A model generated the notes under the pieces. The model ran no database searches. It had not been told where the DNA came from and worked only from the letters and a program-made list of their open reading frames with translations. The position numbers and the translations under genes are program-made. A DNA stretch of 64,000 nucleotides, taken from positions 1,088,001 through 1,152,000 of the forward strand of contig CBDFLJ010000002.1 of assembly GCA_965248835.1 (NCBI GenBank), written 5' to 3'. Of the stretch, positions 1 to 59,799 are shown piece by piece (position 1 is the stretch's first letter; each line of letters begins with the position of its first letter). The DNA comes from Alphaproteobacteria bacterium (GTDB lineage Bacteria; Pseudomonadota; Alphaproteobacteria; MPNO01).

Positions 1-128
1 TCTCCAACCAGTATCTTGCCCTGGGGCTGATGAACGGCCTTGCGATCGTGGTGCTCGCCATCATCTTCGACCGGATATCGCAGGGGTTCGGAAAGAACAT
101 CCAGAAGCACCGGAGGGAAGGGCATTAG
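1..128 (+). CDS. proW: Glycine betaine/proline ABC transporter permease, C-terminal part (cut by window edge)
   Basis: Frame 3 reads SNQYLALGLMNGLAIVVLAIIFDRISQGFGK...EGH*, with the ProW-type 'GLAIVVLAIIFDRI' C-terminus; lies directly before a ProV-like gene. Confidence 0.8.
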   Translation, partial: SNQYLALGLMNGLAIVVLAIIFDRISQGFGKNIQKHRREGH

Positions 129-1143
129 CGCCGACGTCAAGGTCACGATCAGGAATCTCTACAAGATCTTCGGCCCCCGCGCGTCCGCCATGACGGAGCA
201 TGTCAGGGCCGGGATGTCGAAGGAGGACCTGCTCGACAGGCACGGACACGTGCTCGGCGTCAAGAACATCGACCTCGACGTCGCCGCCCATCAGATCCAG
301 GTCGTCATGGGACTGTCGGGGTCGGGGAAGTCCACGCTGATCCGTCACATCAACCGGCTCATCGAACCGACCTCGGGCGAAGTGTTCGTCGACGGAGAGG
401 ACATCCTCGCCATGAAGCCGCCCGAACTGCGGGAGTTCCGGCGATACACGGCGTCCATGGTATTCCAGCGCTTTGCGCTCCTGCCCCACCGTACGGTCGC
501 CGAGAACGTCGCGTACGGCCTCCGTATTCAGGGCATAGACAAGGGAGAGAAGGCGGAACGCGCCCGGCGCTGGATCGACCGGGTCGGACTCACGGGATAC
601 GAGGACTACTACACAACGCAACTCTCGGGCGGCATGCAGCAGAGGGTGGGCCTTGCGCGCGCACTCGCGACCGACGCCGAAATCCTTCTGATGGACGAAC
701 CGTTCTCGGCGCTCGACCCCCTCATCCGCGCCGACATGCAGGACATACTGCTCGATCTGCAGACCGAGCTGCACAAGACGATCGTCTTCATCACCCACGA
801 CCTCGAAGAGGCGCTCCGAATCGGGAACAGCATCGCGATCCTGCGGGCCGGCGAAGCGGTGCAGATCGGGACACCGCAGGAAATCGTCATGCGCCCCGCG
901 GACGACTACGTCGCCGAATTCATCAAGGACATCAATCGCGGCCGGGTGATCGAGGTCGCCTCGATCATGGAGGCCGAATACGCGAACGGCGCTCCCAAAG
1001 TCGATGCGGGAACCGTTCTGGACGATGCACTGCAGCTCCTCATCGGCACCGGAGCGCAGATCGCGTCCGTGACCCGGAACGGAAAGTCGGTCGGCTCCGT
1101 CCGCCTAGAGCGGATCGCGTCCGCCCTCGCCAGGCCCGATTGA
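124..1143 (+). CDS. proV: Glycine betaine/proline ABC transporter ATP-binding protein
   Basis: NLYKIFG N-terminus, Walker A GLSGSGKS, signature LSGGMQQRV, Walker B ILLMDEPFSALDP, ITHD. Start uncertain: ATT at 124 with GGAGG at 112-116, or TTG at 40. Confidence 0.85.
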   Translation: MSADVKVTIRNLYKIFGPRASAMTEHVRAGMSKEDLLDRHGHVLGVKNIDLDVAAHQIQVVMGLSGSGKSTLIRHINRLIEPTSGEVFVDGEDILAMKPPELREFRRYTASMVFQRFALLPHRTVAENVAYGLRIQGIDKGEKAERARRWIDRVGLTGYEDYYTTQLSGGMQQRVGLARALATDAEILLMDEPFSALDPLIRADMQDILLDLQTELHKTIVFITHDLEEALRIGNSIAILRAGEAVQIGTPQEIVMRPADDYVAEFIKDINRGRVIEVASIMEAEYANGAPKVDAGTVLDDALQLLIGTGAQIASVTRNGKSVGSVRLERIASALARPD

Positions 1144-1164
1144 ACGAAGTTGCGCGTATAGCCC

Positions 1165-1828
1165 GGCATTGTCAGACTAAATGGCCTGGAGCTGCAGAAC
1201 CTTCAGTTGAGGCCCCTTAGGCTGCAAGTTGCCTCTACTCGGCCAGCGCAGCAGCCCGGTCTTGTGTGAAAATGTCGCGGCGGTTGAGATGGCGTTGGTG
1301 GTTGAAATGGTTGTGGATCGAGGCATCGACGGAGGCGAATTTCAGCAGAGTTTTTACGTCCCTGAATTTGGCCATTGCGCGTTCCCGTCGTCGGAAGGGT
1401 CGATGTGAGTTTTCTGCCCGGTTGTTGAGCCAACGCCTGTCCCCCCGGCTGCCCTCGTTGCCGATCACCTTCATCGCTGCCCGGTATGATTGTAGCCTGT
1501 CCGTGACGATCGTGGCCGGCCGGCCATAGCGCTTCATAGCCCGCTTCAGAAACCTGAGCGCGGCTTCGCGGTCCCGCCGTTTCGTGGCAAAAACCTCCAG
1601 GACTTCGCCTTCATGGTCAACGGCACGCCATAGATATGGCAAATGTCGATACCTCGTTCGAAAAGAATGTCTTCGACCTGCCGCAACGACAGCGGATAGC
1701 GGATATACGTCATCACCGCGAGGCGGATTACCTCGGGCGAGCTGTTGAAATAATGGAAGGGATTGTCCATCACTGGATGGTTACGAGAGCTTACTTCACG
1801 GCTCAAGGCGAGTTACTCTGACGGTGCC
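1165..1828 (-). mobile_element. IS6-family element, internally deleted (non-autonomous)
   Basis: Terminal IRs GGCATTGTCAGACTAA (1165-1180) and TTACTCTGACGGTGCC (1813-1828), 13/16 match; encloses IS6 transposase fragments. Confidence 0.85.
1235..1806 (-). pseudogene. IS6-family transposase, frameshifted with an internal deletion
   Basis: N-part 'FNSSPEVIRLAVMTYIRYPLSLRQVEDILFERGIDICH' joins out of frame to 'YLWRAVDHEGEVLE...TDRLQSY...NNRAENSHRPFRRRER'; the intervening WHLDE segment is missing. Confidence 0.85.
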
Positions 1829-2019
1829 CTTCAGCGGCGTTGGACGTCGCGAGGTCAGGGTGGATGTTCGCTTTGACCGCCGCTTCGGTGGAGAATTCGG
1901 CGCATCCGCGTGGCCTCTACTGTGGGCCGCCGTTGCGATAAGGTTACGCGGCGATACCGCTGTCGGCCCGATTTGATCGCGCCGCGAGAACGCCCCGCCA
2001 ACGGCACCGGTGACAGGAA

Positions 2020-2799
2020 ATGAATGTCAAGGAATCCTTCGTCGAGATCTGCGGCTGCCGCGTCCTGCTACGCCGCGCCGGAACGGGGCAGCCGGTTCTG
2101 TTTTTGCACGGCGCCGGCGGCGTGCCGCAATGGGTGCCTTTGTTCGAGCGGCTGGCGGAGCGGTTCGACCTTCTCGTGCCAGATCATCCGAGTTATAGCC
2201 GCTCCGAGACCCCCGACTGGCTTGACGGGGTGGGAGATCTCGGCTTCTTCTATCTCGACTTTTTGAGAGAGCTCAATCTCGACGGCGTTCACGTCATCGG
2301 CCACTCGCTGGGAGGCTGGGTGGCGCTTGAGGCAGCGGTGCGTTCGACCGAAAGGATCAAGATGCTGACCTTGATCGCTTCGGCCGGCATCCGCATCAAG
2401 GGCGTGCCCGCAGCCAACATTTTCTTCATGGACCGCACGCAGCTCGCCCACGCGCTCTACGCCGATCCCAAGCTCTCCGAGGCGATGCTCGCCAACGATC
2501 CGACACCCGAGGAGATCGGCGAGATGGTGACCAACAGCGTGGCGACCGCGCGGCTTGCTTGGCACCCGCGCCTGTTCGACCCCGCCTTGCGCAAGTGGTT
2601 GCGACGCATCGACAAACCGACGCACATCATCTGGGGCGAAGAAGACAGGATAATTCCCGCCGCCTACGCCTCCGAACTCGCGGGACTCATCGACGGCGCG
2701 ACGACGACGACGGTGCCGAACGCCGGACACATGGTGCATGTCGAGGCGCTCGATGCGGTGATGAACGCGCTCGACAATTTCATCGAATGCAACGCCTGA
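2020..2799 (+). CDS. Alpha/beta fold hydrolase
   Basis: FLHGAGG oxyanion motif, GHSLGG nucleophile elbow, WGEEDRI, AGHMVH. Confidence 0.85.
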   Translation: MNVKESFVEICGCRVLLRRAGTGQPVLFLHGAGGVPQWVPLFERLAERFDLLVPDHPSYSRSETPDWLDGVGDLGFFYLDFLRELNLDGVHVIGHSLGGWVALEAAVRSTERIKMLTLIASAGIRIKGVPAANIFFMDRTQLAHALYADPKLSEAMLANDPTPEEIGEMVTNSVATARLAWHPRLFDPALRKWLRRIDKPTHIIWGEEDRIIPAAYASELAGLIDGATTTTVPNAGHMVHVEALDAVMNALDNFIECNA

Positions 2800-2814
2800 T
2801 CGAGGAGACCGGTC

Positions 2815-4026
2815 ATGCTGGTCATGATGTTCCACCTGATGCCCTATCCCGGCCTGCCCGACGAGGTGACGTCGGCGTATGACAGCTACTGGATCACGCT
2901 GCCCAACAGCCAATACGACCGCGAGGTCGGCCACCATATCTACAACCGCTATCTCGACGAGCTCGAGCTTTGCGCGGAGCTCGGCCTCGACGCCGTCGCG
3001 GTGAACGAGCATCACCAGACGCCCTACGGGCTGATGCCATCGCCAATCGTCACCGCCTCAGCGCTGGCGCGCCGCGTCGGCGACCGCTGCAAGATCGCCA
3101 TCTTCGGCAGTGGGTTTTGTCTGCGCGAGCACCCGCTCACCTTGGCCGAAGAGCACGCGATGATCGACACCATAACCGGTGGACGGCTGATCTCCGGCTT
3201 CGTCCGCGGCGTGGGCGCGGAGTACACGTCCTTCGGCGTAAATCCTGTTCGCTCTCACGAACGGCACATCGAGGCACACGATCTCGTTGTGCAGGCGTGG
3301 TCGAAGCCCGGGCCTTTCGCCTTCGAAGGCAAGCATTACCACTTCGAATACATCAACATCTGGCCACGCCCGTACCAGCAGCCGCACCCGCCGATCTGGT
3401 GCCCCTCCCAAGGCTCGTCCGAGACCATCGAGTGGGCGGCCCACCCTGACCGCAAATATGTCTATCTGCAAAACTTCAACCCGTGGGACGCAGCGGTGAA
3501 GTATCTCAACTATTATCGCGAGGTCGCGCAGCGCGCCTACGGCTATGAGGCGACCTCGAGCCAGCTCGCTTGGGGCGCGCCAGTCTATGTTGCCGAGACC
3601 GACGAGCAGGCCATCGATGAAGCGCGCGAGCCTCTCGAATATCTCTTCAACAAGGCGTTCAAGATGCCGGGCGGCATGTTCTTCCCGCCCGGCTACACCT
3701 CGCACGGCTCGATGCGCCAGATCGTGGCGGCCAAGAGCTCGATCATGTCGGCCGGCCGCACGGTCGAGAATCTTGCCCATGTCGGTCTCGCTGTCATCGG
3801 CAGCCCCGAGACGGTGCGCAACCGGCTCATCCAGTGCCATAACGAGCTCGGTTTCCACGCCTTTGTCGCGCTGCTCCACTTCGGCACCATGTCGGCCGAA
3901 AAGACCGAGAACAACATCCGCCTCTTCGCCAAGGAGGTCCTGCCCGCGATCCAGGCGCTCGATGACGGACACTATGCCGGCTTCGAGATGCCCAGCACCG
4001 GCCAGCCGAGCTACGCGGCGGAGTGA
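2815..4026 (+). CDS. LLM-class (luciferase-like) flavin-dependent monooxygenase
   Basis: VNEHHQ, LAEEHAMID, GRLISGFVRG, PRPYQQPHPPIW, GSPETV; GAGGAG RBS. Confidence 0.9.
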   Translation: MLVMMFHLMPYPGLPDEVTSAYDSYWITLPNSQYDREVGHHIYNRYLDELELCAELGLDAVAVNEHHQTPYGLMPSPIVTASALARRVGDRCKIAIFGSGFCLREHPLTLAEEHAMIDTITGGRLISGFVRGVGAEYTSFGVNPVRSHERHIEAHDLVVQAWSKPGPFAFEGKHYHFEYINIWPRPYQQPHPPIWCPSQGSSETIEWAAHPDRKYVYLQNFNPWDAAVKYLNYYREVAQRAYGYEATSSQLAWGAPVYVAETDEQAIDEAREPLEYLFNKAFKMPGGMFFPPGYTSHGSMRQIVAAKSSIMSAGRTVENLAHVGLAVIGSPETVRNRLIQCHNELGFHAFVALLHFGTMSAEKTENNIRLFAKEVLPAIQALDDGHYAGFEMPSTGQPSYAAE

Positions 4027-4283
4027 GTGGTGGGAGCGCTGCAGGACGGGTTTGAAACCCGACCATAATCGCTTGCGATCGTTTTCCCGCTCGCCCGCGT
4101 GCTCACGCGCCGGCCGAGATCCCGATCCATTGGCGAACCAGGGGTTCGTCAATCCGGATGGGTTTGTCGGGGCCGCGGCCGAGAAGATCGTCGAAGCCAG
4201 CAGGGACTAAGCACGGGGCCCACGGTCGGGATTTCCTGGGCTGACAGGGAGCCCATCCAGCCGCCGCCGATTGGCTCCACGCA

Positions 4284-4449
4284 GCAGCTTATTGAATGCC
4301 CTTTCGATATGGTTGCGTTGTTCATCGAGCGCGGTGTCGTGGGGGATGTTGATTTTGCGGCCCCTTTTGCAGGGGATGACGGCGGTTGCGTTGTGGCTTT
4401 CGAGCAATGCCACCGCGTTGCGGCTGTCATGGACCTGACCGGGGCTCAG
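4284..4449 (-). pseudogene. IS5-family transposase C-terminal fragment
   Basis: LSPGQVHD...ATAVIPCKRGRK...HD...QRNHIERAFNKL parallels the C-terminal half of the intact IS5 at 6777-7610 but lacks the ADKAYD segment. Confidence 0.65.
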
Positions 4450-4776
4450 TAGTTCCCCCGAGCAACCTCCTGCAGGATCAGTTTGTCCAGCGTCAGGTGC
4501 GATACCGCCCGGCGCAGACGCGTATTCTTCGCCTCCAGCTCCTCGAGACGCTTGATTTGGTCGGTCTTCAGACCGCCGAACTCCTGTTGCCACCGATAGT
4601 CGGTAACCTCGCTCACCCCGATCTTACGGATCGCGTCCGGAACGCCGCTCCCCTGCGAAACCACAACATCAACCGGCGCAGCTTCGCAATGATCTCCTCA
4701 GGCTTGTATCGGTTCCTTGGCACGATGGTCCTCCTCCATGTTCATACACAACATCAGGGTGGACCACTTCGATGGG
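4439..4776 (-). mobile_element. IS3-family remnant (left end plus frameshifted orfA; orfB lost)
   Basis: GTG at 4723 gives PRNRYKPEEIIAKLR, then a frameshift into VSQG..DAIRKIGVSEVTDYRWQQEFGGLK...LTLDKLILQEVARGNY*, a typical IS3 OrfA. Confidence 0.8.
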
Positions 4777-6776
4777 CTCTTCACGGCCTGCTGACATCGA
4801 TAACGAAAACATCGATCCAGGAGCGCCGTGCCTCGGGCAAGCGATCAATCAACATCATTCGGAGCGCTTCGGGCGTCTCCGGCCGTTCGAGACCCTCCGG
4901 ATGTCCTGGCATCTTCTTCCCGGGAACATCTCCGAACCAAAGCACGACATACACGCCGCGGCCTTCCGCGTGCCAGTCGCGCGTATAGTTTGCGTCGAGT
5001 TGGTCGCTGGCGGCGTCCCACACATCACGATGCCACTGGCCCTTGATCTCAACCGGCAGTCCGAGCGCGTTACGGATGGCGGCAATGTCCGCCCGCGTCT
5101 GGCCGGGCATGTGCATCTCCGGCTCGAATCGGATCGACGGCGGCAACTGACCCGAAATGTGTTCGATGAGGCGGTTACGGCAGAAGTTCTCCCCCCTGGG
5201 CCCGTCCTCGGTCCAATAGGCTTCCCACATGTCGGTGTTGCTGGCTTGCATGCGCTCCTGGAGGGTTTCGATTCGGTCCGCGAAGTAGGCTCGCATGTCG
5301 TCGATGGTCTCGGGCAATCCCCGTGCCATGACGGATTGGAGTTGACCGACCGTGGGAGCAGCATACTCGGAATCCCGTCGGGCCCTGCGTTGAAGCGTAA
5401 GCGCATGCTTCGCCGTATCGGCGTAGGTCGGGACGTGACCCGCGATCAGGTTCTGCAACGCTTCGGTCGCGTCGGGTGACGGGCGAGTGGCGACGGCATA
5501 GATCGTGCGCCTGATGAAGTCGCTTGCGTCCCATGGGTTGCAATCGCCCGTCGTGACGCCCCCGGGACGCTTGATCCAGGGCCAATGCGCGCCGAAAGCC
5601 TCGACGACGAAAACAAGATGGACGAGGGAGAAATCGGCGAAGCGCTCACCGTTCTCCGTTCCGATCCGGTTTCGGATGAACCAGAGGAAGTCCGGATTAT
5701 CGGCGGCGGCCTTATCAAGTTCCTCCCGACGGTCATCGAAGTCGATGACGTAGTCCGCCGACAACCACAAAAGCTCGGTCGCGCGATCTGGGTGAGCGCG
5801 ATCCCGGACGTCGATGAGCAGTGCGCGTACCTCTCTACGCAGAGCGTTCTTGAGCGCAGAGTCCAGCAGTTCTGTCTGGACGTGGAGGTTCAATGCGGGG
5901 TAGCGGCGCAGCCAATCGACCGCGAGGCGGCCGGCCAACTGGGCAAATCGCGGGTCGGTAGCAAGCCGGTGCAGCTCGGTGATATGTCCCATATTGTGAG
6001 CAAGTTGAGGCTCAATGCTTGCGCGGAAATGGTCTTCCCAGTCCGCTTCGTTATTAAACAAGACCGTTTCGAGCGCGTAGCTGATGTCTATCTGTCCCGA
6101 AGCGTTCACCTCCAGCGCCCGGCGCCACGCCATATAGACCGCCGCGAGCTTGGGGCGATCGATCGCATCGATCGGGCGGCCTTGCCGAAGCATCTCGGCA
6201 ATGCCGCAGATCATGGGACCCTCGGCCTCCCAATGCTTATACTCGCAGTGGACTCGGGCGACGTCGGCGGCGCTCGGCAGGTCACTTCTGTCCAGAACCG
6301 CGATGAAGCCCATGAGTGCCTGATCGCCCAATATGTCGCCGAGGAACCCCCGTACTCGTGCCTCCGGCGATTCTGAGCCATCGAACCAACTGCACCGGCC
6401 GAGGTAGATGTCGGCCGGTGCAGCAAGATCTTGGACACTGCCGACGGCGATTTCATGCACCCTCTGGCGGTCGCGATGAGCTTGAAAAATTGCTTGGCGT
6501 TTTGTTTCTCTAAGGGCGCGGTGTCTCTCGTGCTCGATCTTCCATTCGGGCTCCACGACCTCCGTTTCTTCAGCGAGCACGGCCAGCAGCTCGGGATCAT
6601 CATCCGCAATCCGGATGGCCGCATCACGCACAATTTCCGAGATGCCGTCCGGAGACCGACCGAGCCGCAAGATGTGGCGCCATGTATCTGCATCTATCGA
6701 ACCATCACCCGCACGTGCACGCAGGGCTTTCAACACGCCTACGAGATCTTCAGGGGTCGGATACAGGTTGAGATTA

Positions 6777-7610
6777 GGGTCTGTACCTAATTGTAGAATG
6801 TGATTCTCTTGTTGGATTGAATTGTTATGGAGGGGATCGATGGGCGGTGGACTGTTCTGGTTGAGTGAAGGGCAATGGGCTCGGATCAAGCCGCATTTGC
6901 CGCAGGGTCTGACGGGGCCAAGGCGTTCGGACGATCGGCGGATCATCAGCGGCATTATCCATATGCTGCAATGCGGCGCGCGCTGGCGCGACTGTCCTGC
7001 CGCGTATGGTCCGTACACCACCATCTACAACCGCTTCAACCGCTGGTCCAAACACGGCCGCTGGCAGGCGATCTTCGCCGCGCTGGCCGCCAACGCCGAG
7101 GAACCGGTGGCGCTGGCGCTCGATTCCAGTTCGGTCAAGGCGCACCGCTCGGCGGCGGGCGGAAAAGGGGGGAGAAGAATCAGGCCATCGGACGCTCGCG
7201 CGGCGGGCGGACGACAAAAATCCACGCCCTGAGCGATCCGCGCTGCCGCCCGGTGGCGTTCGTCCTGAGCCCAGGCCAGAAGGCCGATATCGCGGCCGCG
7301 GTCGATGTGCTGGCCGTGGCGCCGCCCATGACCGCGCTGATCGCTGACAAGGCCTATGACGGCGATGCGCTGCGCGCCGACATCGCCAGCCGCAACGCAA
7401 CGCCCGTCATCCCTAACAAGGCCAGCCGCATCAATCTCCACCCCTTCGACGCCAAAACCTACCGCGACCGCAACGTCATCGAGCGCATGTTCTGCCGGCT
7501 CAAGGACTTCCGCCGCATCGCCACCCGCTACGACAAGCTCGCTCGAAACTTCCTCTCCGCAGTCTGTCTTGCCGCTATCCTCGCCTACTGGCTCAATTGA
7601 GTCTGGACCC
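6777..7610 (+). mobile_element. IS5-family (IS427-like) insertion sequence, apparently intact, 834 bp
   Basis: IRs GGGTCTGTACCTAATTG / CAATTGAGTCTGGACCC (12/17 match), flanked by TA at 6775-6776 and 7611-7612. Confidence 0.92.
6840..7600 (+). CDS. IS5-family transposase, two overlapping ORFs joined by a -1 frameshift
   Basis: orfA WRDCPAAYGPYTTIYNRFNRW...LDSSSVKAHRSAAG; slippery AAAAGGGGGG at 7163-7172; orfB GRSRGGRTTKIH...ADKAYD...RNVIERMFCRLKDFRRIATRYDK. Confidence 0.9.
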
Positions 7611-9684
7611 TAGTCTCAATGAGTCGATGCGCCGCCATCCAGGCGCCGTCTTCACATGGAGTCAGCAGTACATGTTCAAGAAGTGCCGCGCGGAGGCCGT
7701 GTTCCTTGTGAAAGATCTCTGTCAGCCGATTTCTGGTGTCGTCGTTGTAGCCGTCACTTCCGTCCAGCCAGTCGATCCATGCCCATATGCGCCCCGCTTC
7801 GATCCCTGGATCGGCTTCCAGAACCCGGACCGTAAGGCGTCTGACCAGGTCCGCGAGGTGCGACGTCGCGGAATGATCGGCCTCCCCTATCAACGGCCGC
7901 GCACGTTCGGCCAAGCCGTCGAGCAATGTTGCGAGCTGTTCGGTGTCGAGGTCGCCGAAAAGATGGCTGGGCACATGCCTTATCTCGCGCGATACGGATG
8001 CGGGGCCCTGATTCGCGGCAAGCCCGAAAAACGCCAAAACGACGTCGATGGCAGTTCCAGTGGACACGGTAGGCGCCCCGACACGGGCGAGTACCTCGCA
8101 TGCCAGCCGCGCGGAGTCGGCTTCTTCCATTTCGAGCAGCCGGCGAATGGTCGCTTCCCAATCAGCGCAGGCACCTGTGGCGCATATCGCATCGGCGGCA
8201 CATGACCGTTCCGCAAGAATGCGGTCCCGGTCGAACAAAATCGTCTCCAACGCCGACGCGAGTTCCTCGGCGAGGGCTGTCCCGGCCACCGCTTCGAGTA
8301 GAAGGACGGTAAGTTGCGTATGGAGGCGGGGCGTGCCGATGATGGCAAGGATGTCATCCTTGAGTTCCGCGCACACCAATCCCGATGCAGGGTGCCTACC
8401 CCAATCTTCGGATCTGAAATAGGGGTCTTCCTCGGACAGCTTCTCAAGTGCGGCGAGCAAGGCCCGCGCCTGTTCGAGGCCAAGCGTCTCCGCTTCGCCA
8501 TAGCGCAATACGGCGTAGGGATCGGCGCCAATGCATCGACCGGCCAGGACGGCGCTGAAGTGCGCCATCCATGCGTGCAGGCCACGCAGAGAGGTCGGCA
8601 CACCCTCGCCCTGCCGGAACAGAGCGAAGATCCTTCTCTCCGAGACTTCGTTGTCGAAGCACCGCACGAGCCATTCGGCGCCAAGATATTCGGCGATCAC
8701 GCGATGGATGTGCGTGAACCGGCTCTCGCCTTCGGCCTGAAACAGGCGGGTCCTGAGCGCATCATCAGCGGCCTCACCGAACAGAAGTGCGGCAACATCG
8801 GAAACGTTCACAAAGTCTTCCGGGGTGTTGGCGTATGGACCGGTATACACGCCGATGCGAGCGCATAGCACTTGGGTCGCACAAATCGCGCCGGCGGCCA
8901 GCAGCAGATCCTCATGACTTCTGTGAACATGTGAATCGTCAAGATGACGAGGATTTTTTTCGGAGAGCATGACACGGCAGGCGCGGTCGAACAGTTGGGC
9001 GCGAGTATCGGGAAGTGAGCCATCTTCTTGCGCGACCTCGCCGAGCATTCGCAGAGTCAGTGGATTTTCGTAAATACCTTCAAGCCCGCGGCTCGCGAGG
9101 TGCTCCAGAACGAAGCCCGCATCGACCGTCGGGAATTCATTCGACAAGAAGTCTTGAGCATCGCCATACCCAAAGGGCTGGAGGTGCAACAGCACCGGCG
9201 CTGCACCATAATCATCCTTGATCTGGATGCTATCGGCCGCGCCCCGCCAATCTGCTTCGCGGCAAGAGAGGATGAAAGACGGGTTGCCCATTTTGGATAG
9301 CTGGCTTAGGACGGAATCGACCGCACCCCCGGGGGTGGAAGAGGCGATCTCGTCGAGCCCGTCGACGATGATGCGCTCATCTGCGGGGATCAGAGCCTCG
9401 GGCTTGGCAGTGCGCACGAATGTACCCGCTCGGCAGTACTTCATGCTGGGCAGCTCGCCGAGCGTTTTGGTGAGGACGCTCTTACCCAGACCGGGATCAC
9501 CCAGGATTACGATTGGCTCGGGGATGGCTGCAATCTGGTCCTGATCGATGACTTGCGGCTGTCGGTCGCGGTCCTCGTGAGCCAGTTTTCTCGTGATCGG
9601 GTTCGACATCAGGTTCTTCTATCAGATAAGTTTGCTCATCCCCATGCGGTGGGAATGCGGCCGGAGGATCTTCTCGATCAGGCT

Positions 9685-10899
9685 TCACACGGCCAGGCTG
9701 GTCAGCGCCTGGATCGCCCAGCCGCCCAAGGCGCCCAGAATCACCACCAGCCAGGGCGGCAGTTTCCAAACCGCCAACGCCGCCAAAGCAGCCAGCGCCA
9801 GAGCGAAGTCGCCCGGCGCCCGGATGCCGCCGGTCCAGACCGGATCGTAGAGCGCGGCAAGCAGCAGGCCGACGACGGCGGCGTTGATCCCGCGCAGCGC
9901 CTTGCGAGCAGGTTTGAGCCGGCGGACGGACTCCCAGAACGGCAGCACGCCGGCGATCAACAGGAAGGACGGGGCAAAGACCGCGCCCAGGCAGATCAGG
10001 GCGCCGAGCCAGCCGTTCGGTGCTGCGGCCATCACCGTGCCGAGATAGGCCGCGAAGGTGAACAACGGCCCCGGCACGGCCTGGGCGGCGCCGTAGCCGG
10101 CGAGGAAGTCATCCTTGCCCACCCAGCCCGGCGGGACGATTTCGGCCTGCAGCAGCGGCAGAACCACATGGCCGCCGCCGAAGACCAGCGCCCCCGACCG
10201 GTAGAAGCTGTCTACGAGAAGCAGCGATTGCGCCGGGTAGTAGGCGGCAAGGACCGGCAGGCCGAGGAGGAGAGCGAGGAACAGGCCGAGCAAGCCGATG
10301 GAGACGGATTTCCGCAGCGGGACCCCGAGCCCGGCGGTCGGCTCATCGGGATCGACCGGCAGGAAGGCCAAGCCGGCGATGCCGCCGGCGAGGATGACGA
10401 CGACATGGAGCAAGGGGACCGGTGCGGCAAGGACCGCGACGGCCGCCAGCACCGCCAGACTCGCCCGGCGCATATCGGGGCAAAGGGTTCTCGCCATCGC
10501 CCATACGGCCTGGGCGAGGACCGCGACCGCGACGGCCTTCAACCCGTGCAGCAGTCCCGGCGGTATCGCCTCGGCATAGGCGAGGATTCCGTAGCCGAAC
10601 GCGCAAAGCACCACCGCCGAGGGCAGCGTGAAGCCGAGCCATGCCGCGAGCGCGCCGGGAATCCCGGCCCTTGCAAGCCCGATCCCGATGCCGACCTGGG
10701 AGGATGCCGGACCCGGCAGGAACTGGCACAGGGCAACGAGATCCGCATAGGCGGCTTCCTCGATCCAGCGGCGGCGGACGACGAACGCCTCATGAAAATA
10801 ACCAAGATGGGCGATCGGCCCGCCGAAGGACGTCAGCCCGAGCCCGAGGAAGACGAGGAAGACCCGCGCCGCGGGTATCCTGGCGATGGATCCGCTCAT
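9685..10899 (-). CDS. chrA: Chromate efflux transporter (long-chain CHR family)
   Basis: LGLTSFGGPIAHLGYF, ALCQFLPGPASSQVG, LVFGGGHVVLP, AQAVPGPLFTFAA; start could be 10965. Confidence 0.9.
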   Translation of the reverse strand: MSGSIARIPAARVFLVFLGLGLTSFGGPIAHLGYFHEAFVVRRRWIEEAAYADLVALCQFLPGPASSQVGIGIGLARAGIPGALAAWLGFTLPSAVVLCAFGYGILAYAEAIPPGLLHGLKAVAVAVLAQAVWAMARTLCPDMRRASLAVLAAVAVLAAPVPLLHVVVILAGGIAGLAFLPVDPDEPTAGLGVPLRKSVSIGLLGLFLALLLGLPVLAAYYPAQSLLLVDSFYRSGALVFGGGHVVLPLLQAEIVPPGWVGKDDFLAGYGAAQAVPGPLFTFAAYLGTVMAAAPNGWLGALICLGAVFAPSFLLIAGVLPFWESVRRLKPARKALRGINAAVVGLLLAALYDPVWTGGIRAPGDFALALAALAALAVWKLPPWLVVILGALGGWAIQALTSLAV

Positions 10900-11025
10900 G
10901 CGCGCGTCGGCAATTCCGGCGTGGGACTGTTCACGGTGCGCCGGGTCCCGCCGCGGGCCTGACATCCCGTTCCGCTCTGCGCTGGGCCACTATGCTCCGG
11001 TCCTTCGGGTCGGACACGGTGGACC

Positions 11026-11880
11026 CTAGGCGGAACTCGGCGCCGATCCGTTGCGGCGCCAGATGACCGGGAACAGCTCGTCGTCCTCCGGATACGCCCC
11101 GTTTTCGAGATCGGGCCATTTGGGCAAGCCCATCACGCGCGGGCGGCGGTCCCAGGTCACGTCGTCGCCCAGATAGCGGATCGACAGCGCCATCCTGCGC
11201 GTCTCCAGGGATACGTTGCCTCCGGCGCCGTGCACCGTGAGCGGGTGGTGGCAGATGCAGTCGCCCGCCTCCACGTCCCAGGACAGGAACGCGAGCGAAG
11301 GGTCGTCGCGGCGCTCGCCAAAATCCGGGCATTCCTCGAGATCCGTGTCGGTGAACGCCGCGTCCTCGTCGGGCGTGACCGCGCAGTAGAACTTGTTCCA
11401 TCGGTGCGAGCCGGCGACGTATTCGAGCCCGCTGGTCTGCCTGGTCACCGGGGTCAGCGCGAGCCAGATCGAGGCCAGATGCTCGCCTCGGAACGGCCAG
11501 AACGGCAGATCGTGATGCCACTGCGTCGGCGCGCCGGTGCCGGGATCCTTGACGAAGAGCTGGTCGTACCAGAACCGCACCTGGTCGACACCCATCAGGG
11601 TCGCGGCGATCTCGGCTGCCGGGGAGTCGTTGCGGAAGGCGAGGAACTCCGGGTCATAAACGCTCATGAACCTATTGATCGTGAATTTCGCCTCCTCGCC
11701 GGGAAGCTGCGCCACGCGCCGTCGGTGCGCGCCGCGTTCGCTCTCGAGGTATCGGGTCATCGCCGCGCGCATGCGCGTGACCCAATCCTGATCGAACATT
11801 CCCCGCAGGCAGACGACCCCCTGGTCGTTATAGGCATCCATATCGGCCTGGATGATCTTCCGTCCCGGTCGTTTGTTCAT
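11026..11880 (-). CDS. Phytanoyl-CoA dioxygenase (PhyH)-family 2OG/Fe(II) oxygenase
   Basis: FVKDPG..TQWHHD (HxD), WLAL, GLEYVAGSH, TVHGAGGN...R. Confidence 0.88.
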   Translation of the reverse strand: MNKRPGRKIIQADMDAYNDQGVVCLRGMFDQDWVTRMRAAMTRYLESERGAHRRRVAQLPGEEAKFTINRFMSVYDPEFLAFRNDSPAAEIAATLMGVDQVRFWYDQLFVKDPGTGAPTQWHHDLPFWPFRGEHLASIWLALTPVTRQTSGLEYVAGSHRWNKFYCAVTPDEDAAFTDTDLEECPDFGERRDDPSLAFLSWDVEAGDCICHHPLTVHGAGGNVSLETRRMALSIRYLGDDVTWDRRPRVMGLPKWPDLENGAYPEDDELFPVIWRRNGSAPSSA

Positions 11881-11904
11881 GTTTTACCTCGTCGATCGCA
11901 GTGA

Positions 11905-13197
11905 CTATTCCATGAAGCTCGGAAGGAACAGCGACAAGCCGGGGATCGAGACGATCAAGGTGATGCGCACCAGATCCGCGGCGACGAACGGGATCACCCC
12001 GCGGAAGATCTCGGTGAGCTTTATGTCGGGCAGCATTGCGTTGAGCACGAACACGTTGAGGCCGATCGGCGGGGTGATCAGGCTGATCTCGATGACCACC
12101 ACGACGACGATGCCGAACCAGATCAGGTCGAAGCCCAGCGCTTGCATGACCGGGTAGAAGACCGGCACCGTCAGCAGCATCATCGAGACGCTTTCCAGGA
12201 TGCAGCCGAGCAGGATGTAGATCGCAACGCAGATCACCACGACCATGATCGGTGCGATCGCGACGGTCTCGAACCAGTCGGCGAGCATGTTCGGAAGCCG
12301 CGAGACGTTGATGAAGTTGGCGAACAGCAGCGAGCCGACCAGCAAGGTCATCAGCATCGCCGTCGTTCGCCCGCTCTCGGCCAGGATCTCGAGCGTGATC
12401 CGCCAGGTCAGGGTCTTGCGGGCCAATGCGATGATGAATGCGCCGGTGGCGCCGATCCCGGCCGCCTCGGTGGGGGTGAACCAGCCGATATAGATGCCGC
12501 CCATCACGATCAGGAACAGCACCAGCATGCCCCAGACGCCGCGCAGCGCCCGGATGCGTTCCGACCACGGAACCGCCTCGGCCGGCGGGCCGAGCTCGGG
12601 GTTGATGCGGGTCACAACCGCGACTGCCCCGGCATAGAGCGCCACGCCGATGATTCCCGGGATGATGCCAGCCGCGAACAGTTGGCCGATATCGGTCTCT
12701 GTCATGATGCCGTAGAACACCAGTGCGATGCTGGGTGGGATCAGGATGCCGAGCGTGCCGCCGGCGGCGATCGAGCCCGCGGCGAGGCTGTCGGCATAGC
12801 CGAAGCTGCGCATCGGCGGCATCGCGACCTTGGCCATCGTGGCCGCGGTCGCGAAGCTCGACCCGCAGACCGCGCTGAAGCCGCCGCAGGCAACGATCGT
12901 CGCCATCGCCAGCCCGCCGCGGCGGTGGCCGAGCCAGCGGTTGGAGGCCTCGTAGAGGTCGTGGCTGATGCCCGAGCGGGCGACGAAATTGCCCATCAGG
13001 ATGAACAGCGGCAGCACCGAGAAGTCGTAGACCATGACCATGTCGGTCGCGGTGTTGCCGATGCTCCGCAGCGCCGGCGTGAGCCCGACGTAATAGGCGA
13101 ACCCGGCGGTGCCGACGATCGCCATCCCGAAGGCAATGGGGATCTGCAGCAGCAGAAGGACGAACAGGATGACGAAGCCGAGGGCGACGACTTCCAT
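11905..13197 (-). CDS. dctM: TRAP transporter large permease
   Basis: 430 aa hydrophobic; GGTLGILIPPS, FTPTEAA, ITPPIGLNVF. Confidence 0.92.
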   Translation of the reverse strand: MEVVALGFVILFVLLLLQIPIAFGMAIVGTAGFAYYVGLTPALRSIGNTATDMVMVYDFSVLPLFILMGNFVARSGISHDLYEASNRWLGHRRGGLAMATIVACGGFSAVCGSSFATAATMAKVAMPPMRSFGYADSLAAGSIAAGGTLGILIPPSIALVFYGIMTETDIGQLFAAGIIPGIIGVALYAGAVAVVTRINPELGPPAEAVPWSERIRALRGVWGMLVLFLIVMGGIYIGWFTPTEAAGIGATGAFIIALARKTLTWRITLEILAESGRTTAMLMTLLVGSLLFANFINVSRLPNMLADWFETVAIAPIMVVVICVAIYILLGCILESVSMMLLTVPVFYPVMQALGFDLIWFGIVVVVVIEISLITPPIGLNVFVLNAMLPDIKLTEIFRGVIPFVAADLVRITLIVSIPGLSLFLPSFME

Positions 13198-37869: not shown

Positions 37870-38448
37870 TCAAGCGTTGACCGGCGGGTCTATGGCGAAG
37901 ACTCCGGCAAAGGCGTCGACGACCTTTTTACCGAAGTCGCGCTCGACCTCCTGGGCGATCGAGCCGGCGATCGAGACGTCGTTGCGGTTCTCGTCCTGGC
38001 CGGTGATGACGGTGAGCTGAACCGCATCGATATCGCCGACATTGCGGAAGCCGCGATAGACCCGCGGCGGGCAGGAGAAAGTGTCGAACTTCTCCAGCGT
38101 CACCTTGTGCTCGACCGGGTCGCCGATGTGGTATTCGATCCGGCCGTCCAGGACCATGAAGGTCTCGAAGGTCGTGTTGTGCGAGTGCAGGCACGGACCC
38201 TGGCCGGGCGGCATGATCGAGATGAACATCGTCGCGCCGGCAGCGCCGAAGATCGGCGCGATGTTGCCGAACGGATTCTTGGTGTCGTCCAGGATCAGCG
38301 GCATGATCTTGCGGGCGAAGAAGACGTCCATCGCCTCCTGGCCGACCCAGCCGAGGTCGCCCTCGGTCGACATCGCCTGGAGATCGGCATAGCGACCGAT
38401 CCGCGAGTCCAGCTCTTCCTTGGTCGGGGTGTAGATCTTGTGCGCCAT
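37870..38448 (-). CDS. Cupin-domain protein
   Basis: PPGQGPCLHSHNTTFETFMVLDG, PPRVYRGFRN. Confidence 0.85.
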   Translation of the reverse strand: MAHKIYTPTKEELDSRIGRYADLQAMSTEGDLGWVGQEAMDVFFARKIMPLILDDTKNPFGNIAPIFGAAGATMFISIMPPGQGPCLHSHNTTFETFMVLDGRIEYHIGDPVEHKVTLEKFDTFSCPPRVYRGFRNVGDIDAVQLTVITGQDENRNDVSIAGSIAQEVERDFGKKVVDAFAGVFAIDPPVNA

Positions 38449-38647
38449 TGCTCCATACCTCCCTGGGCGGCTTGGCCATTTCGATCGATGGCATTATGGA
38501 CGAGCCGAACGCGCCGCGCGAGAGATCGAACACGGCATGAAATCCCCGACCGAAATCAATCCGGACGAATGCCGGGCAGCCGGTTGCCAGGACACGGCTT
38601 GGACCTGTTAAGTTTGTCCGGGTCCACGGTTGGGAAAGCACATCGGC

Positions 38648-39526
38648 ATGCACGATTTCAGTTTTGGCGAGATCAGCCTCACCCGGGTCGTCGAGATGGA
38701 AATGCCGCTTCTGCAGGCACGGGACTTCTTCCCGGACTGGGACGAGGCCGCCGTCGCGCCACATTCCGGATGGATGGTGCCGCGCCACTATCAGCCGGAG
38801 ACCGGGCTGGTGGTGCTGGCGATCCAGGCCTTCCTGATCCGCACGCCGCATCACACGATCCTGATCGATAGCTGCGTCGGCAATCGCAAGCCGCGCAACC
38901 GGGAGTCTTTCAACGATGCCGAATTCCCGTGGATGGACCGGTTTCTTGCGACCGGGGCCCGCCCGGAGGATATCGATTTCGTCCTGTGCACCCATCTGCA
39001 CGTCGATCACGTCGGCTGGAACACCAGGCTCGAAGACGGACGCTGGGTGCCCACTTTCCCCAACGCGCGCTACATCTTTGCCCGCACCGAGCTCGACTTC
39101 TGGCTGGAACAGTCCAGGCAGGGGCTGATGACCCGGACCGGCGATTACGTCGCCGACAGCGTGATCCCGATCCTGGAGGCCAGGCGCGAGCTCCTGGTCG
39201 AGATGGATCACCAGATCGAAGACGGGATCACGCTCGAACCGCTGCCCGGCCACACCCCGGGCCAGGTCGGGCTGCGCATCGCCTCGGGCGGGGTGGAGGC
39301 GCTGCTCTGCGGCGATCTGATGCACCACATGATCCAGTGCCATATCCCCGACTGGAGCACGATCGCGTGCGCCGACCAGGACGCGGCGCGCATGACCCGC
39401 AAGGCGTTCCTCGATCGCTACGCCGAGACCGAGGTGACCATCCTGCCGTCGCATTTCCCGAACCCGACCGCCGGCCACATCATCCCCAAGGGCGAGGCCT
39501 TCGCCTTTCGCTACATCGGGGAATGA
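38648..39526 (+). CDS. Metallo-beta-lactamase-fold hydrolase
   Basis: THLHVDHVG (HxHxDH), PGHTPG, GDLMH, SHF. Confidence 0.9.
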   Translation: MHDFSFGEISLTRVVEMEMPLLQARDFFPDWDEAAVAPHSGWMVPRHYQPETGLVVLAIQAFLIRTPHHTILIDSCVGNRKPRNRESFNDAEFPWMDRFLATGARPEDIDFVLCTHLHVDHVGWNTRLEDGRWVPTFPNARYIFARTELDFWLEQSRQGLMTRTGDYVADSVIPILEARRELLVEMDHQIEDGITLEPLPGHTPGQVGLRIASGGVEALLCGDLMHHMIQCHIPDWSTIACADQDAARMTRKAFLDRYAETEVTILPSHFPNPTAGHIIPKGEAFAFRYIGE

Positions 39527-39529
39527 CGG

Positions 39530-40621
39530 GTGATGCGGGTCCATGTCGAGGCCTACCCCACTGTTGGACCGCAAGACGTCGAGGGGCTGAAACGGATCCT
39601 GAGCCGCTTGCCGAAGGGCGGCATCAAGCGTCTGGCGCTGGTCGCCAAGACCGAAGGGACCGCAACCATCAACGATTTCTCCCGCGAGCTCGCGATGGGC
39701 GCGGCAATGGATACGATCGGGGCGTTCGGCGGTGAACGTCTGCTGGGGGACTCCACCCTGATCTTCTCCACCGGCTCGGAAGGTGCGCTGAGCCCGGTGG
39801 TCTATGTGCTTGCCGCGATCGAGGATGCCGGCACCGGCGAGGACGAGCGTCTGGTCATCGGCGGCGCGCGGACCCGGGCGATGGCGCCCGAAGAACTCGT
39901 CACCCGCGCCCATACAAACCTGATTGCCGATGCCGTTCGCGAGGCGATGGACGAGGCGGGGCTGGTGCCCGGGCAGGTCGGTCTGGTCTTCGTCAAGAGC
40001 CCGATTCTCGGCCACCGCGATGCGGTCGAGACCGGTGATCCGGCGGTCATCGCGCGGGCCGGCTCCAGCGGGCAGTCGCGCGGCGCTGCGGCGCTCGGGG
40101 TTGCGCTGGCCCTCGGCGAGTTGGACGACGCGGCGATTGCCGAGACCCGGATCGGCATCGATCTCGATCGTCATTCCAGCCGCGCGATGAGTTTCTCGGG
40201 CACCGAGGTCGCGGTCGGCGAAATCCTGGTGCTCGGCAACCGCCCCGGCGTGGGCGGTTCGTCAAAAATCTATTCGCGTCCGATGGCCGACATCCTGGAT
40301 TCGCGCGCGCTCAAGGCGCTGTTCCGCGACGCCGGCTGCGGCTTCGACGAGGCCGGCGAGATCACCGGCCGGGAGCGGCTCCGTGCGGTGTTCCTCAAGG
40401 CCGGGGTTGCCCCCGACGGACGCATTCGCGGCGAACGCACGACGGTCTTCAACAGCGAGCTCGACCCCGACAAGCACATGCGCGCCACCGCGAGCGGGGT
40501 GATCGGCGGCATCCTCGGCACCGGCCGCGTCTTCGTCAGCGGCGGCACCGAGCACCAGGCGCCGCCCGGCGGCGGGCTCTGCGCCTGTATCGCGGCCGCG
40601 GGGGAGGGCGCCGATGGATGA
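39530..40621 (+). CDS. Ring-opening amidohydrolase, cyanuric acid hydrolase/barbiturase (AtzD) family, divergent
   Basis: KTEG..NDFSR, FSTGSEG, FVKSP, SRGAAALG, C-terminal SGGTEHQAPPGGG. Confidence 0.85.
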   Translation: MMRVHVEAYPTVGPQDVEGLKRILSRLPKGGIKRLALVAKTEGTATINDFSRELAMGAAMDTIGAFGGERLLGDSTLIFSTGSEGALSPVVYVLAAIEDAGTGEDERLVIGGARTRAMAPEELVTRAHTNLIADAVREAMDEAGLVPGQVGLVFVKSPILGHRDAVETGDPAVIARAGSSGQSRGAAALGVALALGELDDAAIAETRIGIDLDRHSSRAMSFSGTEVAVGEILVLGNRPGVGGSSKIYSRPMADILDSRALKALFRDAGCGFDEAGEITGRERLRAVFLKAGVAPDGRIRGERTTVFNSELDPDKHMRATASGVIGGILGTGRVFVSGGTEHQAPPGGGLCACIAAAGEGADG

Positions 40622-57671: not shown

Positions 57672-58447
57672 CGTCTTTGCTCCAGTTCTGACGGGGCCGA
57701 ACCGTCCCCGGTCACCGCCGGTTCATCGCCGCGCGGCCATCGCCGGCCGAGCACGACCAGCGCATCGACCGCCACCGGATCCGCGCCGGTGACGATCATC
57801 GGGTTGACGTCGATCTGCTCGATCTCGGGGTGATCGAGGCCGATCCTGCCCAGCGCGACGATCGACCTGGTGAGCGCGGCCAGATCGACCGCCGGCATGC
57901 CGCGGATGGCCTCGAGCAGCTTGTGCCCCCTGATGCTCCGGACCATTTCCAGCGCATCGCGCTTGCGCACGGGCGCGATGCGGAACACAACGTCTTCGAG
58001 AACCTCGGTGAAGATGCCGCCAAGGCCGAACATGACCGATGGTCCGAACTGCTCGTCGCGGATCATCCCGATCGCGACCTCGCGCTCGCCTCTGATCATC
58101 TGCTGGACCAGGAAGCCGCCGGTAAACGCCGGCCCGGCGCGTTGGTTGATGGTGCGGAAGGCATCGCCCAGCGCCCTGTCCGAGCTGAGATTGACCGCGA
58201 CCAGACCCTTTTCCGTCTTATGGGTCGCTTCCGCTGCACATGCCTTCAGCACGACCGGATAGCCGAGTGTCTTTGCTGCGTCCCTGGCCTGTGCAAGCCG
58301 GCTCACCAGCACCTCACGGGTCACCGGGATGGCGTAGGCGGCAAGAATCCGCTTGCTGTCGTACTCCGAAAGCGTGCGCTCGCCGCGGGATTTCGCCGCA
58401 TCGATGACTGCGGCCGCTTGTCTTGCGGCGTCGCTTCGCCCCGCCAT
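57668..58447 (-). CDS. ADP-forming acyl-CoA ligase ATP-grasp (beta) subunit
   Basis: LSEYDSKRIL, GYPVVLK, HKTEKG, FGPSVMFGLGG, DVNPM, AVDA. Confidence 0.85.
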   Translation of the reverse strand: MAGRSDAARQAAAVIDAAKSRGERTLSEYDSKRILAAYAIPVTREVLVSRLAQARDAAKTLGYPVVLKACAAEATHKTEKGLVAVNLSSDRALGDAFRTINQRAGPAFTGGFLVQQMIRGEREVAIGMIRDEQFGPSVMFGLGGIFTEVLEDVVFRIAPVRKRDALEMVRSIRGHKLLEAIRGMPAVDLAALTRSIVALGRIGLDHPEIEQIDVNPMIVTGADPVAVDALVVLGRRWPRGDEPAVTGDGSAPSELEQRR

Positions 58448-58469
58448 CGAAGCCGGTCCGGCGGCCGGC

Positions 58470-59468
58470 TCAGCCGGCCTTGCCCGTGGTCAGCACGATC
58501 TTGCCGATCGATTTGCGCTGGCCGAACAGCGTGATCGCCTTCTGGAAGTCTTCCAGCGGATAGGTGGCGGTGATCGCCGGACGGATCTCGCCCTTGACGC
58601 ACATCTCCAGGACCTCGGCGACGACCTTCTCCATGGTCTCGGGCACGTAGCGGAAGTGCAGGTCGAGCGATACGCCGGCCATGGTCAGGTTCTTGACGTT
58701 GAAATAGCCGACCTTGGCCTCGGGGATGCGGCCGGCCGCGAAGCCGATGGCGACGATCCGCCCGGCGAAGGCAAGCGTGCGGATGGCGGCATCGAACACG
58801 TCGCCGCCGACCGGATCGAGCACGATGTCCACGCCCCTGCCGTCGGTCACGGCGAAGATCTGCTCACGCAGGGACTCGCGCAGGTCGCCGACCGACAGGT
58901 CGATCGTATGATCGGCACCGTTGGCCTTCGCCAGCGCGTTTTTCTCCTCGGAAATATCCGCCGCGAGCACGACCGCGCCCTTGGCCTTGGCGATCTGGAC
59001 GGCCGCCAGCCCGACACCGCCGGAGGCGCCCAGCACCAGCACGGTCTCGCCCGGCTGATACTGACCGCGGATCATCAAGGACACATAGGCGGTGTTGTAG
59101 ATGGTCGTCATTCCCGCCCCGGTGATGAAATCGATGCCCTCGGGCAGCGGGAAACACCGCGATTCCGGAGCAACGACCTGTTCGGCATAGGCGCCGGTCG
59201 GGACGAGGACCGCGACCCTGTCGCCGACCTTGACCTTGGTGATCTTCTCGCCAATCGCGGTGACGATCCCGGCGGCGTCGCGGCCGGGAACGAAGGGGCG
59301 CTGGGGCTTGGTCTGATAAAGACCCTGCATCATCAAGGTGTCGGGGAAGTTGACGCCGATTGCGTGGACCTCGACCAGCACTTCCTGCGGTCCGGGTCTG
59401 GGGTCGGGCACCTCCTCGAGCTTGTGGCTTTCCAGCGGCCCGAATTCGTGGATGAGGACACCGCGCAC
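58470..59468 (-). CDS. NADPH:quinone oxidoreductase-family (MDR) protein
   Basis: GVNFPD, PFVPG, VLGASGGVG, LDPVGG, GFAAG, GKIVL; GTG start after GGAGG. Confidence 0.9.
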   Translation of the reverse strand: MRGVLIHEFGPLESHKLEEVPDPRPGPQEVLVEVHAIGVNFPDTLMMQGLYQTKPQRPFVPGRDAAGIVTAIGEKITKVKVGDRVAVLVPTGAYAEQVVAPESRCFPLPEGIDFITGAGMTTIYNTAYVSLMIRGQYQPGETVLVLGASGGVGLAAVQIAKAKGAVVLAADISEEKNALAKANGADHTIDLSVGDLRESLREQIFAVTDGRGVDIVLDPVGGDVFDAAIRTLAFAGRIVAIGFAAGRIPEAKVGYFNVKNLTMAGVSLDLHFRYVPETMEKVVAEVLEMCVKGEIRPAITATYPLEDFQKAITLFGQRKSIGKIVLTTGKAG

Positions 59469-59799
59469 TGTTCTTGCCTCCGATCTTTCCGGGCCACCAT
59501 CGGCCGCATCGTTTTCGGTGGGCGACATCCCCGGCGGAGTGATCCACCGCGCGCGCGCACCGTTTGGTTCAAAGAGGCGGACTCTGGCTCAACGAGGCGG
59601 ATCGATCACGCCCCCAGCCCTGCCGCACAACGAAATTTCCGGCAAAATATCATCGCCATACGCGGCATGAAAGCCTCAAACAAGCGCCGCCCGAACAGGT
59701 TCGGGGACCCGCTTGACCCCGGTCGGCATCCTATCGACTATCGCGTCAATGAACGCCGGGCCGGGTTCCGGCCGAAGCGACAAGGATGGGGTAAAGGCA

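Follow-up and report, generated by a model that had tools for sequence, protein, structure and literature searches.

An IS5-family insertion splits a probable copy of the anti-phage gene eruA (Erebus/Avs10) in an alphaproteobacterial genome

The window analysed here is a 64,000-nucleotide stretch from an Alphaproteobacteria bacterium of the MPNO01 lineage (NCBI GenBank assembly GCA_965248835.1, contig CBDFLJ010000002.1, positions 1,088,001 to 1,152,000 of the forward strand). Its minus strand carries two long open reading frames (ORFs), at 7585–9609 (674 aa) and 4781–7024 (747 aa), separated by an 834-bp insertion sequence (IS) of the IS5 family that is flanked by two copies of the dinucleotide TA (Table 1). 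A first-pass annotation, made from the DNA letters, had read the two ORFs as a single gene for an NLR-like NTPase with a C-terminal nuclease and had proposed it as a new anti-phage system. We find that the gene is very probably eruA, which on its own makes up the Erebus system (Avs10 of Lee et al.), and that a single IS5-family element, landing midway along the sensor, has recently inactivated it; the intact protein would consist of a NACHT NTPase, a helical sensor and a C-terminal effector.

That the two ORFs are one gene was borne out by scripted removal of the IS. Deleting the element together with either TA copy yields 3993 nt, in frame, encoding 1330 aa with no internal stop, and joins HRLIET to NLNLYPTP, as had been predicted; deleting the IS alone yields 3995 nt, loses the frame and leaves 10 stops. 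The motifs named beforehand are all present, including GDPGLGKS, IIVDGLDE, SCR (residues 115–117), HRVIAEY (302–308) and the C-terminal set described below. The insertion falls in codon 666. Only 9 codons of IS sequence are read before the N-terminal ORF now stops, and the sole start available to the 3′ part is an antisense-strand ATG inside the IS (7024). The full-length protein cannot be made in this genome, and the part bearing the putative nuclease has lost its start.

The element has the features of the IS5 family: a DDE-type transposase, terminal inverted repeats and a short target duplication. The inverted repeats are imperfect, their first 17 bases having GGGTC, AC and AATTG in common, in that order. 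The transposase is encoded in two overlapping frames, orfA (6822–7232; Pfam DUF4096, E 1.1e-24) and orfB (6875–7600; Pfam DDE_Tnp_1, E 3e-15; NCBIfam transpos_IS5_3, NF033580.1, 159.3 bits vs a cut-off of 110), with orfB in the -1 frame relative to orfA. The subgroup is presumably IS427-like, a provisional placement. The IS is present once in the window; a search of plasmid records for it returned nothing beyond partial, ~80% matches to ISMra5-like elements, and a repeat search of positions 1–12000 gave chance-like pairs only.

Both halves of the gene match the NCBIfam equivalog model NF058535.1, "NACHT domain-containing antiphage protein EruA" (release 20; 1318 positions, whole-protein cut-off 1000 bits). 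The N half covers model positions 1–650 (630.9 bits, E 6e-189) and the C half positions 656–1318 (606.5 bits, E 1.5e-181). Each falls below 1000 bits because it is half a protein; scored separately, the two are collinear end to end and sum to 1237.4 bits. The closest intact relative among the matches listed, P0001 (90% identity to the N half, 83% to the C half), reaches 1230.7 bits, about the sum of the window's two halves, and all 11 intact homologues that were scored lie above the cut-off (1191–1347 bits). A word-index search returned 635 longer relatives, the best 120 of which are mostly 1330–1365 aa. Since both halves are collinear on one family model and intact relatives of 1330–1365 aa exist, the one-gene reading is not a product of chance; and because of the EruA match and the homologues above the cut-off, we identify the gene as an interrupted eruA. 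The proposal of a single-gene anti-phage family is thereby upheld, the anti-phage activity itself being taken from published work. The system is not new: the family is already named and covered by a curated model, its trigger and an effector mutant are in print, and the first-pass annotation had itself allowed that a match to a named system would remove the novelty.

Table 1. Features of the split eruA gene and of IS remnants near it (window coordinates).
Feature	Position	Strand	Content or basis
eruA 5′ part	7613..9609	-	codons 1-665 + 2 nt; NACHT NTPase (~residues 30-330) and first sensor half
Walker A GDPGLGKS, residues 37-44	9478..9501	-	motif position
Walker B IIVDGLDE, residues 80-87	9349..9372	-	motif position
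TA, one target-site duplication copy (2 bp)	7611..7612		sequence
IS5-family element, 834 bp	6777..7610	+	DUF4096, DDE_Tnp_1, transpos_IS5_3
TA, other target-site duplication copy	6775..6776		sequence
eruA 3′ part	4781..6776	-	last base of codon 666, codons 667-1330, stop; second sensor half and C-terminal effector domain
C-terminal domain, 150 residues (DUF8371, PF28130), putative PD-(D/E)xK-type effector	4784..5233	-	conserved residues, ESM Atlas
Nested IS debris directly after the eruA stop	4207..4700	-	IS3-family orfA fragment 4446-4664 abutting IS5-family transposase fragment 4207-4593
IS6-family transposase fragment	1235..1642	-	E 2e-26, 92.9 bits vs cut-off 125, model positions 85-201 only

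The lesion is young. Among positions invariant in 37 homologues, the window's protein retains 150 of 151, and it keeps 295 of the 299 positions conserved in at least 35 of those 37. Because conserved positions are nearly all kept, and because both IS ends, both transposase frames and the exact TA duplication are intact, the insertion is read as recent, and it is the only visible defect of the gene.

The N half is predicted to form a NACHT module like those of NOD2, NLRP3 and NLRC4, in agreement with the NLR-like NTPase first proposed near the N-terminus. Its AlphaFold2 (AF2) model (predicted local distance difference test score, pLDDT, 84.3; predicted template-modelling score, pTM, 0.75) matched NOD2 (5irm, E 3.6e-9) in a Foldseek search of the PDB, as well as NLRP3 and NLRC4, with 73 matches at E<=0.001; these matches supply the arrangement known from NLRs, in which a P-loop fold bearing Walker A and B precedes helical and winged-helix subdomains. 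Across 38 aligned sequences the Walker A residues G37, D38, P39, G40, G42 and K43, the Walker B residues D83 and D86, and R117, H302 and R303 are invariant. The stretch of some 850 residues that had been called probably helical is modelled as a helical solenoid that begins near residue 330 of the N half and extends to about residue 519 of the C half (C-half pLDDT 84.2), and Foldseek of the C half returned armadillo/HEAT-type repeats only, at E about 0.01, with no match at E<=0.001. In the consensus of full-length alignments many positions between ~480 and 1100 are unassigned, so that this sensor is far more variable than the NTPase and the effector.

At the other end of the protein, the last 150 residues hold a conserved motif set (ENFCRNR starting at 1195, RFEPE at 1215, RADIAA at 1227, VEIKGQ at 1241 and SDQLDANY at 1256, in full-length numbering). 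No substitution occurs at E1195, E1219, D1229, E1242, K1244, Q1246, Q1258 or Y1263 in any of 18 domain sequences (an alignment that leaves out locus L002, whose ORF has a non-homologous end) or in any of 38 full-length rows. The AF2 model predicts the order helix, three strands, helix, strand; the PD-(D/E)xK core has this same helix-strand-strand-strand-helix-strand order. D1229 lies just ahead of predicted strand E564–568 and E1242/K1244 lie within strand E571–579 (C-half numbering), which puts the D...(D/E)xK residues where PD-(D/E)xK enzymes have them, on core strands two and three. The best ESM Atlas cluster for the domain is DUF8371 (PF28130; 0.96). With DUF8371 set aside, the nearest clusters are REase_DpnII-MboI (three, 0.81–0.82), PDDEXK_3 (0.80), and RE_AlwI and PDDEXK_1 (0.76), which are leads only because they lie below the 0.9 mark. 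All four are families of restriction-endonuclease type. A two-copy complex prediction for the domain scored 0.00 against a mark of 0.42 and gave no answer either way. Taken together, the motifs, the predicted topology and the weak cluster leads make a nuclease reading of these residues well motivated, and DUF8371 would then cut DNA.

A search with the domain returned 1665 representative clusters at E<=0.001, of which 1229 were at E<=1e-10. In the best 150 of the 1665, the proteins are mostly 1300–1400 aa, and nearly all end with the domain or shortly after it, a few rows carrying at most ~120 further residues. Separately, many matches in plasmid records from Agrobacterium, Rhizobium, Pantoea and Ralstonia cover only the last ~210–260 residues of the C half (403–453 to 662–664) at 30–37% identity and are annotated as hypothetical, suggesting that the terminal module may occur in other protein architectures.

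Published work on the family, taken here from sections and source data of Lee et al. (Nature 2026, PMC13581612; bioRxiv 10.64898/2026.01.04.697583), groups Erebus, Hypnos and bNACHT64 as Avs10, a family of STAND proteins. According to these sections, Avs10 senses the phage major capsid protein and binds its A-domain, and cell death follows. In the source data of Supplementary Fig. 13, the Enterobacter hormaechei protein EhAvs10 and its E1263A-K1265A mutant gave readouts of 0.005–0.015 vs 0.57–0.92 with the capsid gene of Pal001, 0.0005–0.007 vs 1.05–1.14 with that of HdK1, and 0.0006–0.002 vs 0.72–1.16 with that of Skarpretter; the double mutation abolished capsid-triggered killing. The effector mutants of other Avs families in the same table lie at residues 47–98, apart from extra EcAvs19 constructs, making Avs10 the sole family in that table with C-terminal effector residues. 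For Erebus and Hypnos the authors cite van den Berg et al. 2024 (Cell Host Microbe 32:1427), who probably coined the name Erebus. Elsewhere, Erebus is listed as a defence system in papers using DefenseFinder, and its mechanism is described as "currently unclear" in a preprint of 2026; it goes unmentioned in a review of the same year, and a literature search under the names EruA or HyoA returned no relevant paper.

On the published family model, the solenoid would wrap a monomer of the phage HK97-fold major capsid protein; capsid binding would release autoinhibition of the NTPase; the protein would then oligomerise, and the effector would kill the infected cell before phage release. By extension, the alphaproteobacterial clade of the window's protein probably senses the capsid protein too and is probably activated through oligomerisation. 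The window's E1242-x-K1244 pair is invariant and lies 87–89 residues from the C-terminus, where a comparison by position alone finds it compatible with E1263/K1265 of EhAvs10 given family lengths of 1330–1365 aa.

Homologues of the window's protein were collected from other genomes by a contig scan, which gave 23 loci (L001 to L023) at 26–66% identity. Most are alphaproteobacterial, including Sphingomonas (S. citricola at L017), Sphingobium, Acetobacter (A. lovaniensis at L018) and Brevundimonas; other carriers are metagenome-assembled genomes (MAGs) of Binatia, Longimicrobiales, Bryobacterales, Nitrospinota and Gammaproteobacteria. Neighbouring genes were called by a crude script that takes the longest ORFs (100 aa or more, 314 in total), the 31 overlapping eruA were set aside, and the remaining 283 were scanned with PADLOC. 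In 12 of the 23 loci a PADLOC neighbour was found at E<=1e-40, a threshold chosen after seeing the data, with the window as sole control, no formal statistics and a crude ORF caller. These neighbours are HEC-05 (L001), AbiEi/AbiEii with a CBASS cyclase fragment (L002), type I restriction-modification (R-M) with RmrT/RmrA (L005), PDC-S11 (L007), a type I methyltransferase (L008), PDC-S05 (L009), a type III methyltransferase (L010), ThsB of Thoeris with IetA/IetS (L011), OloB (L016), OloA and OloB (L017), a DrmD fragment (L018) and OloA, OloB and RmrA (L019). Weaker matches occurred at L003, L006, L013, L015 and L022. PADLOC found none near eruA in L004, L012, L014, L020 and L021, several of these loci being on short contigs, and at L023 the sole ORF overlapped the eruA span, leaving no neighbour to scan. 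A defence-island habit of the eruA family is thus supported.

Three sphingomonad loci (L016, 559–2463; L017, 6068–9891; L019, 6083–9891) share a more specific arrangement, in which eruA adjoins Olokun genes encoded on the other strand, so that two defence systems form a conserved pair. OloB reaches E about 1e-193 in each of the three, and OloA reaches E 1e-88 to 1e-91 in L017 and L019. In Brevundimonas sp. R86498 (L022, 2003–7784), the full-length eruA that diverges most (35% identity) lies 2 kb from Tn7-like genes (TnsB-like, E 3e-21; TniQ-like, E 1e-19) and may be transposon cargo.

Broken eruA copies were mapped by tblastn of P0001 against the odd loci. At L002 (10001–12803) there is a frameshift near residue 835, and the copy ends near 935 with no C-terminal effector domain; the frameshift could come from an assembly error in a long-read MAG. 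At L009 (10001–12931) the copy ends near residue 977, beside the PDC-S05 gene, and again has no C-terminal effector domain. At L020 (8040–11395, OZ219786.1) an ISAs1-family transposase gene (8826–9941, E 5.3e-115) lies between eruA residues 236 and 246, and the eruA homology that follows (246–710) stops near residue 710, adjoining IS1182-like genes; L020 is a further eruA disrupted by an IS, independently of the window's copy. Since L002, L009 and L020 are broken as well, the window is not the only place where eruA has been lost, or lost to an IS.

Several results weigh against parts of this picture. The PADLOC check proposed at the outset came back empty, neither half matching PADLOC-DB v2.0.0, a 2023 library older than the Erebus naming. 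In Pfam, NACHT (PF05729) was sub-threshold in the N half (18.5 bits vs a gathering score of 26.7), and nothing was found in the C half with a Pfam copy lacking PF28130. NACHT was likewise sub-threshold in three intact homologues (scores 24.7 and 17.5), and a precomputed PF05729 assignment is listed for a few relatives; PDB sequence searches with each half returned noise only. The defence-island association that the first-pass annotation wished to see examined in homologues is supported there and does not extend to the window, where none of 51 ORFs had a PADLOC match at E<=1e-40, so that this eruA copy lies outside a defence island, and among the homologues two of the 12 positive loci rest on a lone methyltransferase. 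The capsid trigger is linked to the window's protein by the Lee et al. grouping and by the matching E/K position, and would apply to it on that footing. For the C-terminal domain, fold and profile searches gave no tie to any nuclease of solved structure: the C-half model, submitted whole to Foldseek, drew repeat proteins only, so that the small terminal domain was not picked up; a PDB profile search with the domain gave noise (troponin C, E 0.1); and Pfam, with 18 domain sequences and matches admitted as far as E 10, gave Tox-REase-9 for one (E 0.14) and WDR90 for one (E 0.27). The PD-(D/E)xK-like domain first described accordingly holds as far as its invariant D...ExK and predicted strand order, and not as a restriction-endonuclease fold recognised by fold or profile.

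These C-terminal negatives, together with the Pfam class of DUF8371 as a domain of unknown function, are what one would expect if the domain were not a nuclease at all and served instead, for example, as an oligomerisation or DNA-binding module or as a different hydrolase, the E/K pair mattering otherwise than in phosphodiester cleavage. What the source data record for the EhAvs10 mutant is, likewise, the loss of toxicity; they do not show DNA cleavage. We consider this improbable in view of the invariant E...E...D...ExK.Q...Q....Y pattern with its matching predicted strand and helix order, and of the nearest named ESM Atlas clusters, which, at scores of only 0.76–0.82, are all of families of restriction-endonuclease type. 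A different doubt concerns the trigger: the window's clade might recognise something other than the major capsid protein, in which case the Enterobacter Avs10 result would not transfer. The low identity to the relatives from the genome scan (only 35–66%) and the strong variation of the sensor leave some room for this, and we regard it as unlikely rather than far-fetched. An equivalog model denotes the same function, however, and 11 of the 11 homologues scored pass it; in the Lee et al. sections, moreover, Avs sensors read a conserved target fold across homologues despite little sequence similarity.

The insertion could also be viewed as something other than a loss. The IS might act as a reversible or partial switch, precise excision restoring the frame and toggling a costly abortive-infection gene, or the two parts might be expressed separately and still be active, one as a NACHT domain with half a sensor and the other, from the ATG at 7024, as half a sensor with the putative nuclease. 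The IS does look intact at both ends and in both transposase frames, the gene is almost undecayed, the 747-aa ORF spans from inside the IS into the 3′ part, and L020 offers a second, independent IS-disrupted eruA. However, a scan of 4500–10000 found no sigma-70-like promoter site, the sensor is severed in mid-solenoid, and the family model, as given in the Lee et al. sections, needs the sensor to couple ligand binding to the NTPase within one chain. Precise excision is rare in the IS5 family; intact relatives are single ORFs of 1330–1365 aa, and the broken copies at L002, L009 and L020 look like plain decay. We therefore give a switch or split activity almost no credence. A broader proposal, that Erebus/EruA is recurrently switched off by IS because a capsid-triggered nuclease is costly, and that the copy in the window is held off until precise excision turns it back on, which would make the IS a phase switch of an NLR-like immune receptor, is to our minds a very long shot. 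The reading we retain is that of an eruA gene inactivated by the insertion.

Around the split gene, an NCBIfam scan of the window ORFs agrees with the setting first described, IS debris among metabolic genes. The flanking genes encode a luciferase-like monooxygenase (2815–4026) and a chromate transporter (9685–10965), and the remainder of the 64 kb holds transport and catabolism genes. The IS3- and IS5-family pieces at the end of eruA (NCBIfam transpos_IS3, E 1.2e-7; transpos_IS5_3, E 2.5e-6) are fragments, because they score far below the family cut-offs, and the IS6 fragment marks a third IS family left as remnants less than 6 kb from eruA. PADLOC cross-matches in the window are generic: ABC ATPases match mad3/mad8 (best E 2.8e-26), oxidoreductases match C3a156, and the IS3 fragment matches DrmC. 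A search with the flanking 20 kb brought up nothing but short matches at 72–77% identity. The G+C content is about 0.58–0.63 for the gene and 0.57–0.63 for the eruA segment (4401–9800, without the IS), compared with 0.61–0.70 upstream (0.66–0.70 in the upstream chromate transporter and dioxygenase genes) and 0.62–0.64 downstream; by composition, this is compatible with eruA being a horizontally acquired insert. No tRNA, tmRNA or Rfam family (at gathering score) was found in the window. Among its ORFs, 28 of 52 have no NCBIfam match at E<=1e-5, including long ones at 37928–40174 and 58353–60335, and some may be ORF-caller artefacts.

Instead of two hypothetical proteins, the annotation should show one merged entry, an eruA (Erebus/Avs10) pseudogene disrupted by an IS. 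The locus is a clean example of an NLR-like abortive-infection gene recently lost to a single IS insertion, and the decayed copies at L002, L009 and L020 fit the view that such systems are costly and turn over fast. It adds nothing new on mechanism, since for this family both the trigger and the dependence on the C-terminal E/K pair are in print. A small gap concerns the effector: it is still DUF8371 in Pfam, our searches found no solved or formally classified nuclease relative, and DUF8371 is not known to have been formally described as an effector of PD-(D/E)xK type whose place at the C-terminus reverses the customary Avs order of effector, NTPase and sensor.

Among known systems, the closest is Erebus EruA itself, with which the window's gene shares both collinear halves of the equivalog model, a length of ~1320–1350 aa, the order of N-terminal NACHT, helical middle and C-terminal DUF8371, and single-gene organisation; it differs in being IS-split, making no full protein and lying outside any defence island, and its likeness to the tested protein runs through the NCBIfam model. 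In EhAvs10 the mutated pair E1263/K1265 lies towards the C-terminus, as do E1242/K1244 here; its trigger and killing were, in the Lee et al. sections, measured for the Enterobacter hormaechei protein in E. coli and not for the window's clade. Hypnos HyoA (NF058534.1) has a related NACHT and proximal sensor, the N half matching HyoA positions 230–710 (E 3.2e-23), but at 81 bits vs a cut-off of 1200 and with the C half unmatched; HyoA is a sister family and not the family of the window's protein. Avs1–4, Avs7 and most other Avs/AVAST proteins likewise combine a STAND NTPase, a large helical sensor of a conserved phage protein and a nuclease-type effector, with cell death on activation, yet in these the effector, an N-terminal nuclease of Cap4 or Mrr type, comes first and is followed by NTPase and sensor, whereas the window's protein has its NTPase at the N-terminus and its putative effector at the far C-terminus. 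The structures that the N-half model matches best are those of the eukaryotic NLRs NOD2, NLRP3 and NLRC4 (probability 1.00, E 3.6e-9 to 1e-7), at 10–14% identity; in place of their leucine-rich repeats and CARD/PYD adaptors, the window's protein is predicted to have a helical solenoid, no such adaptor, and an effector fused at its C-terminus.

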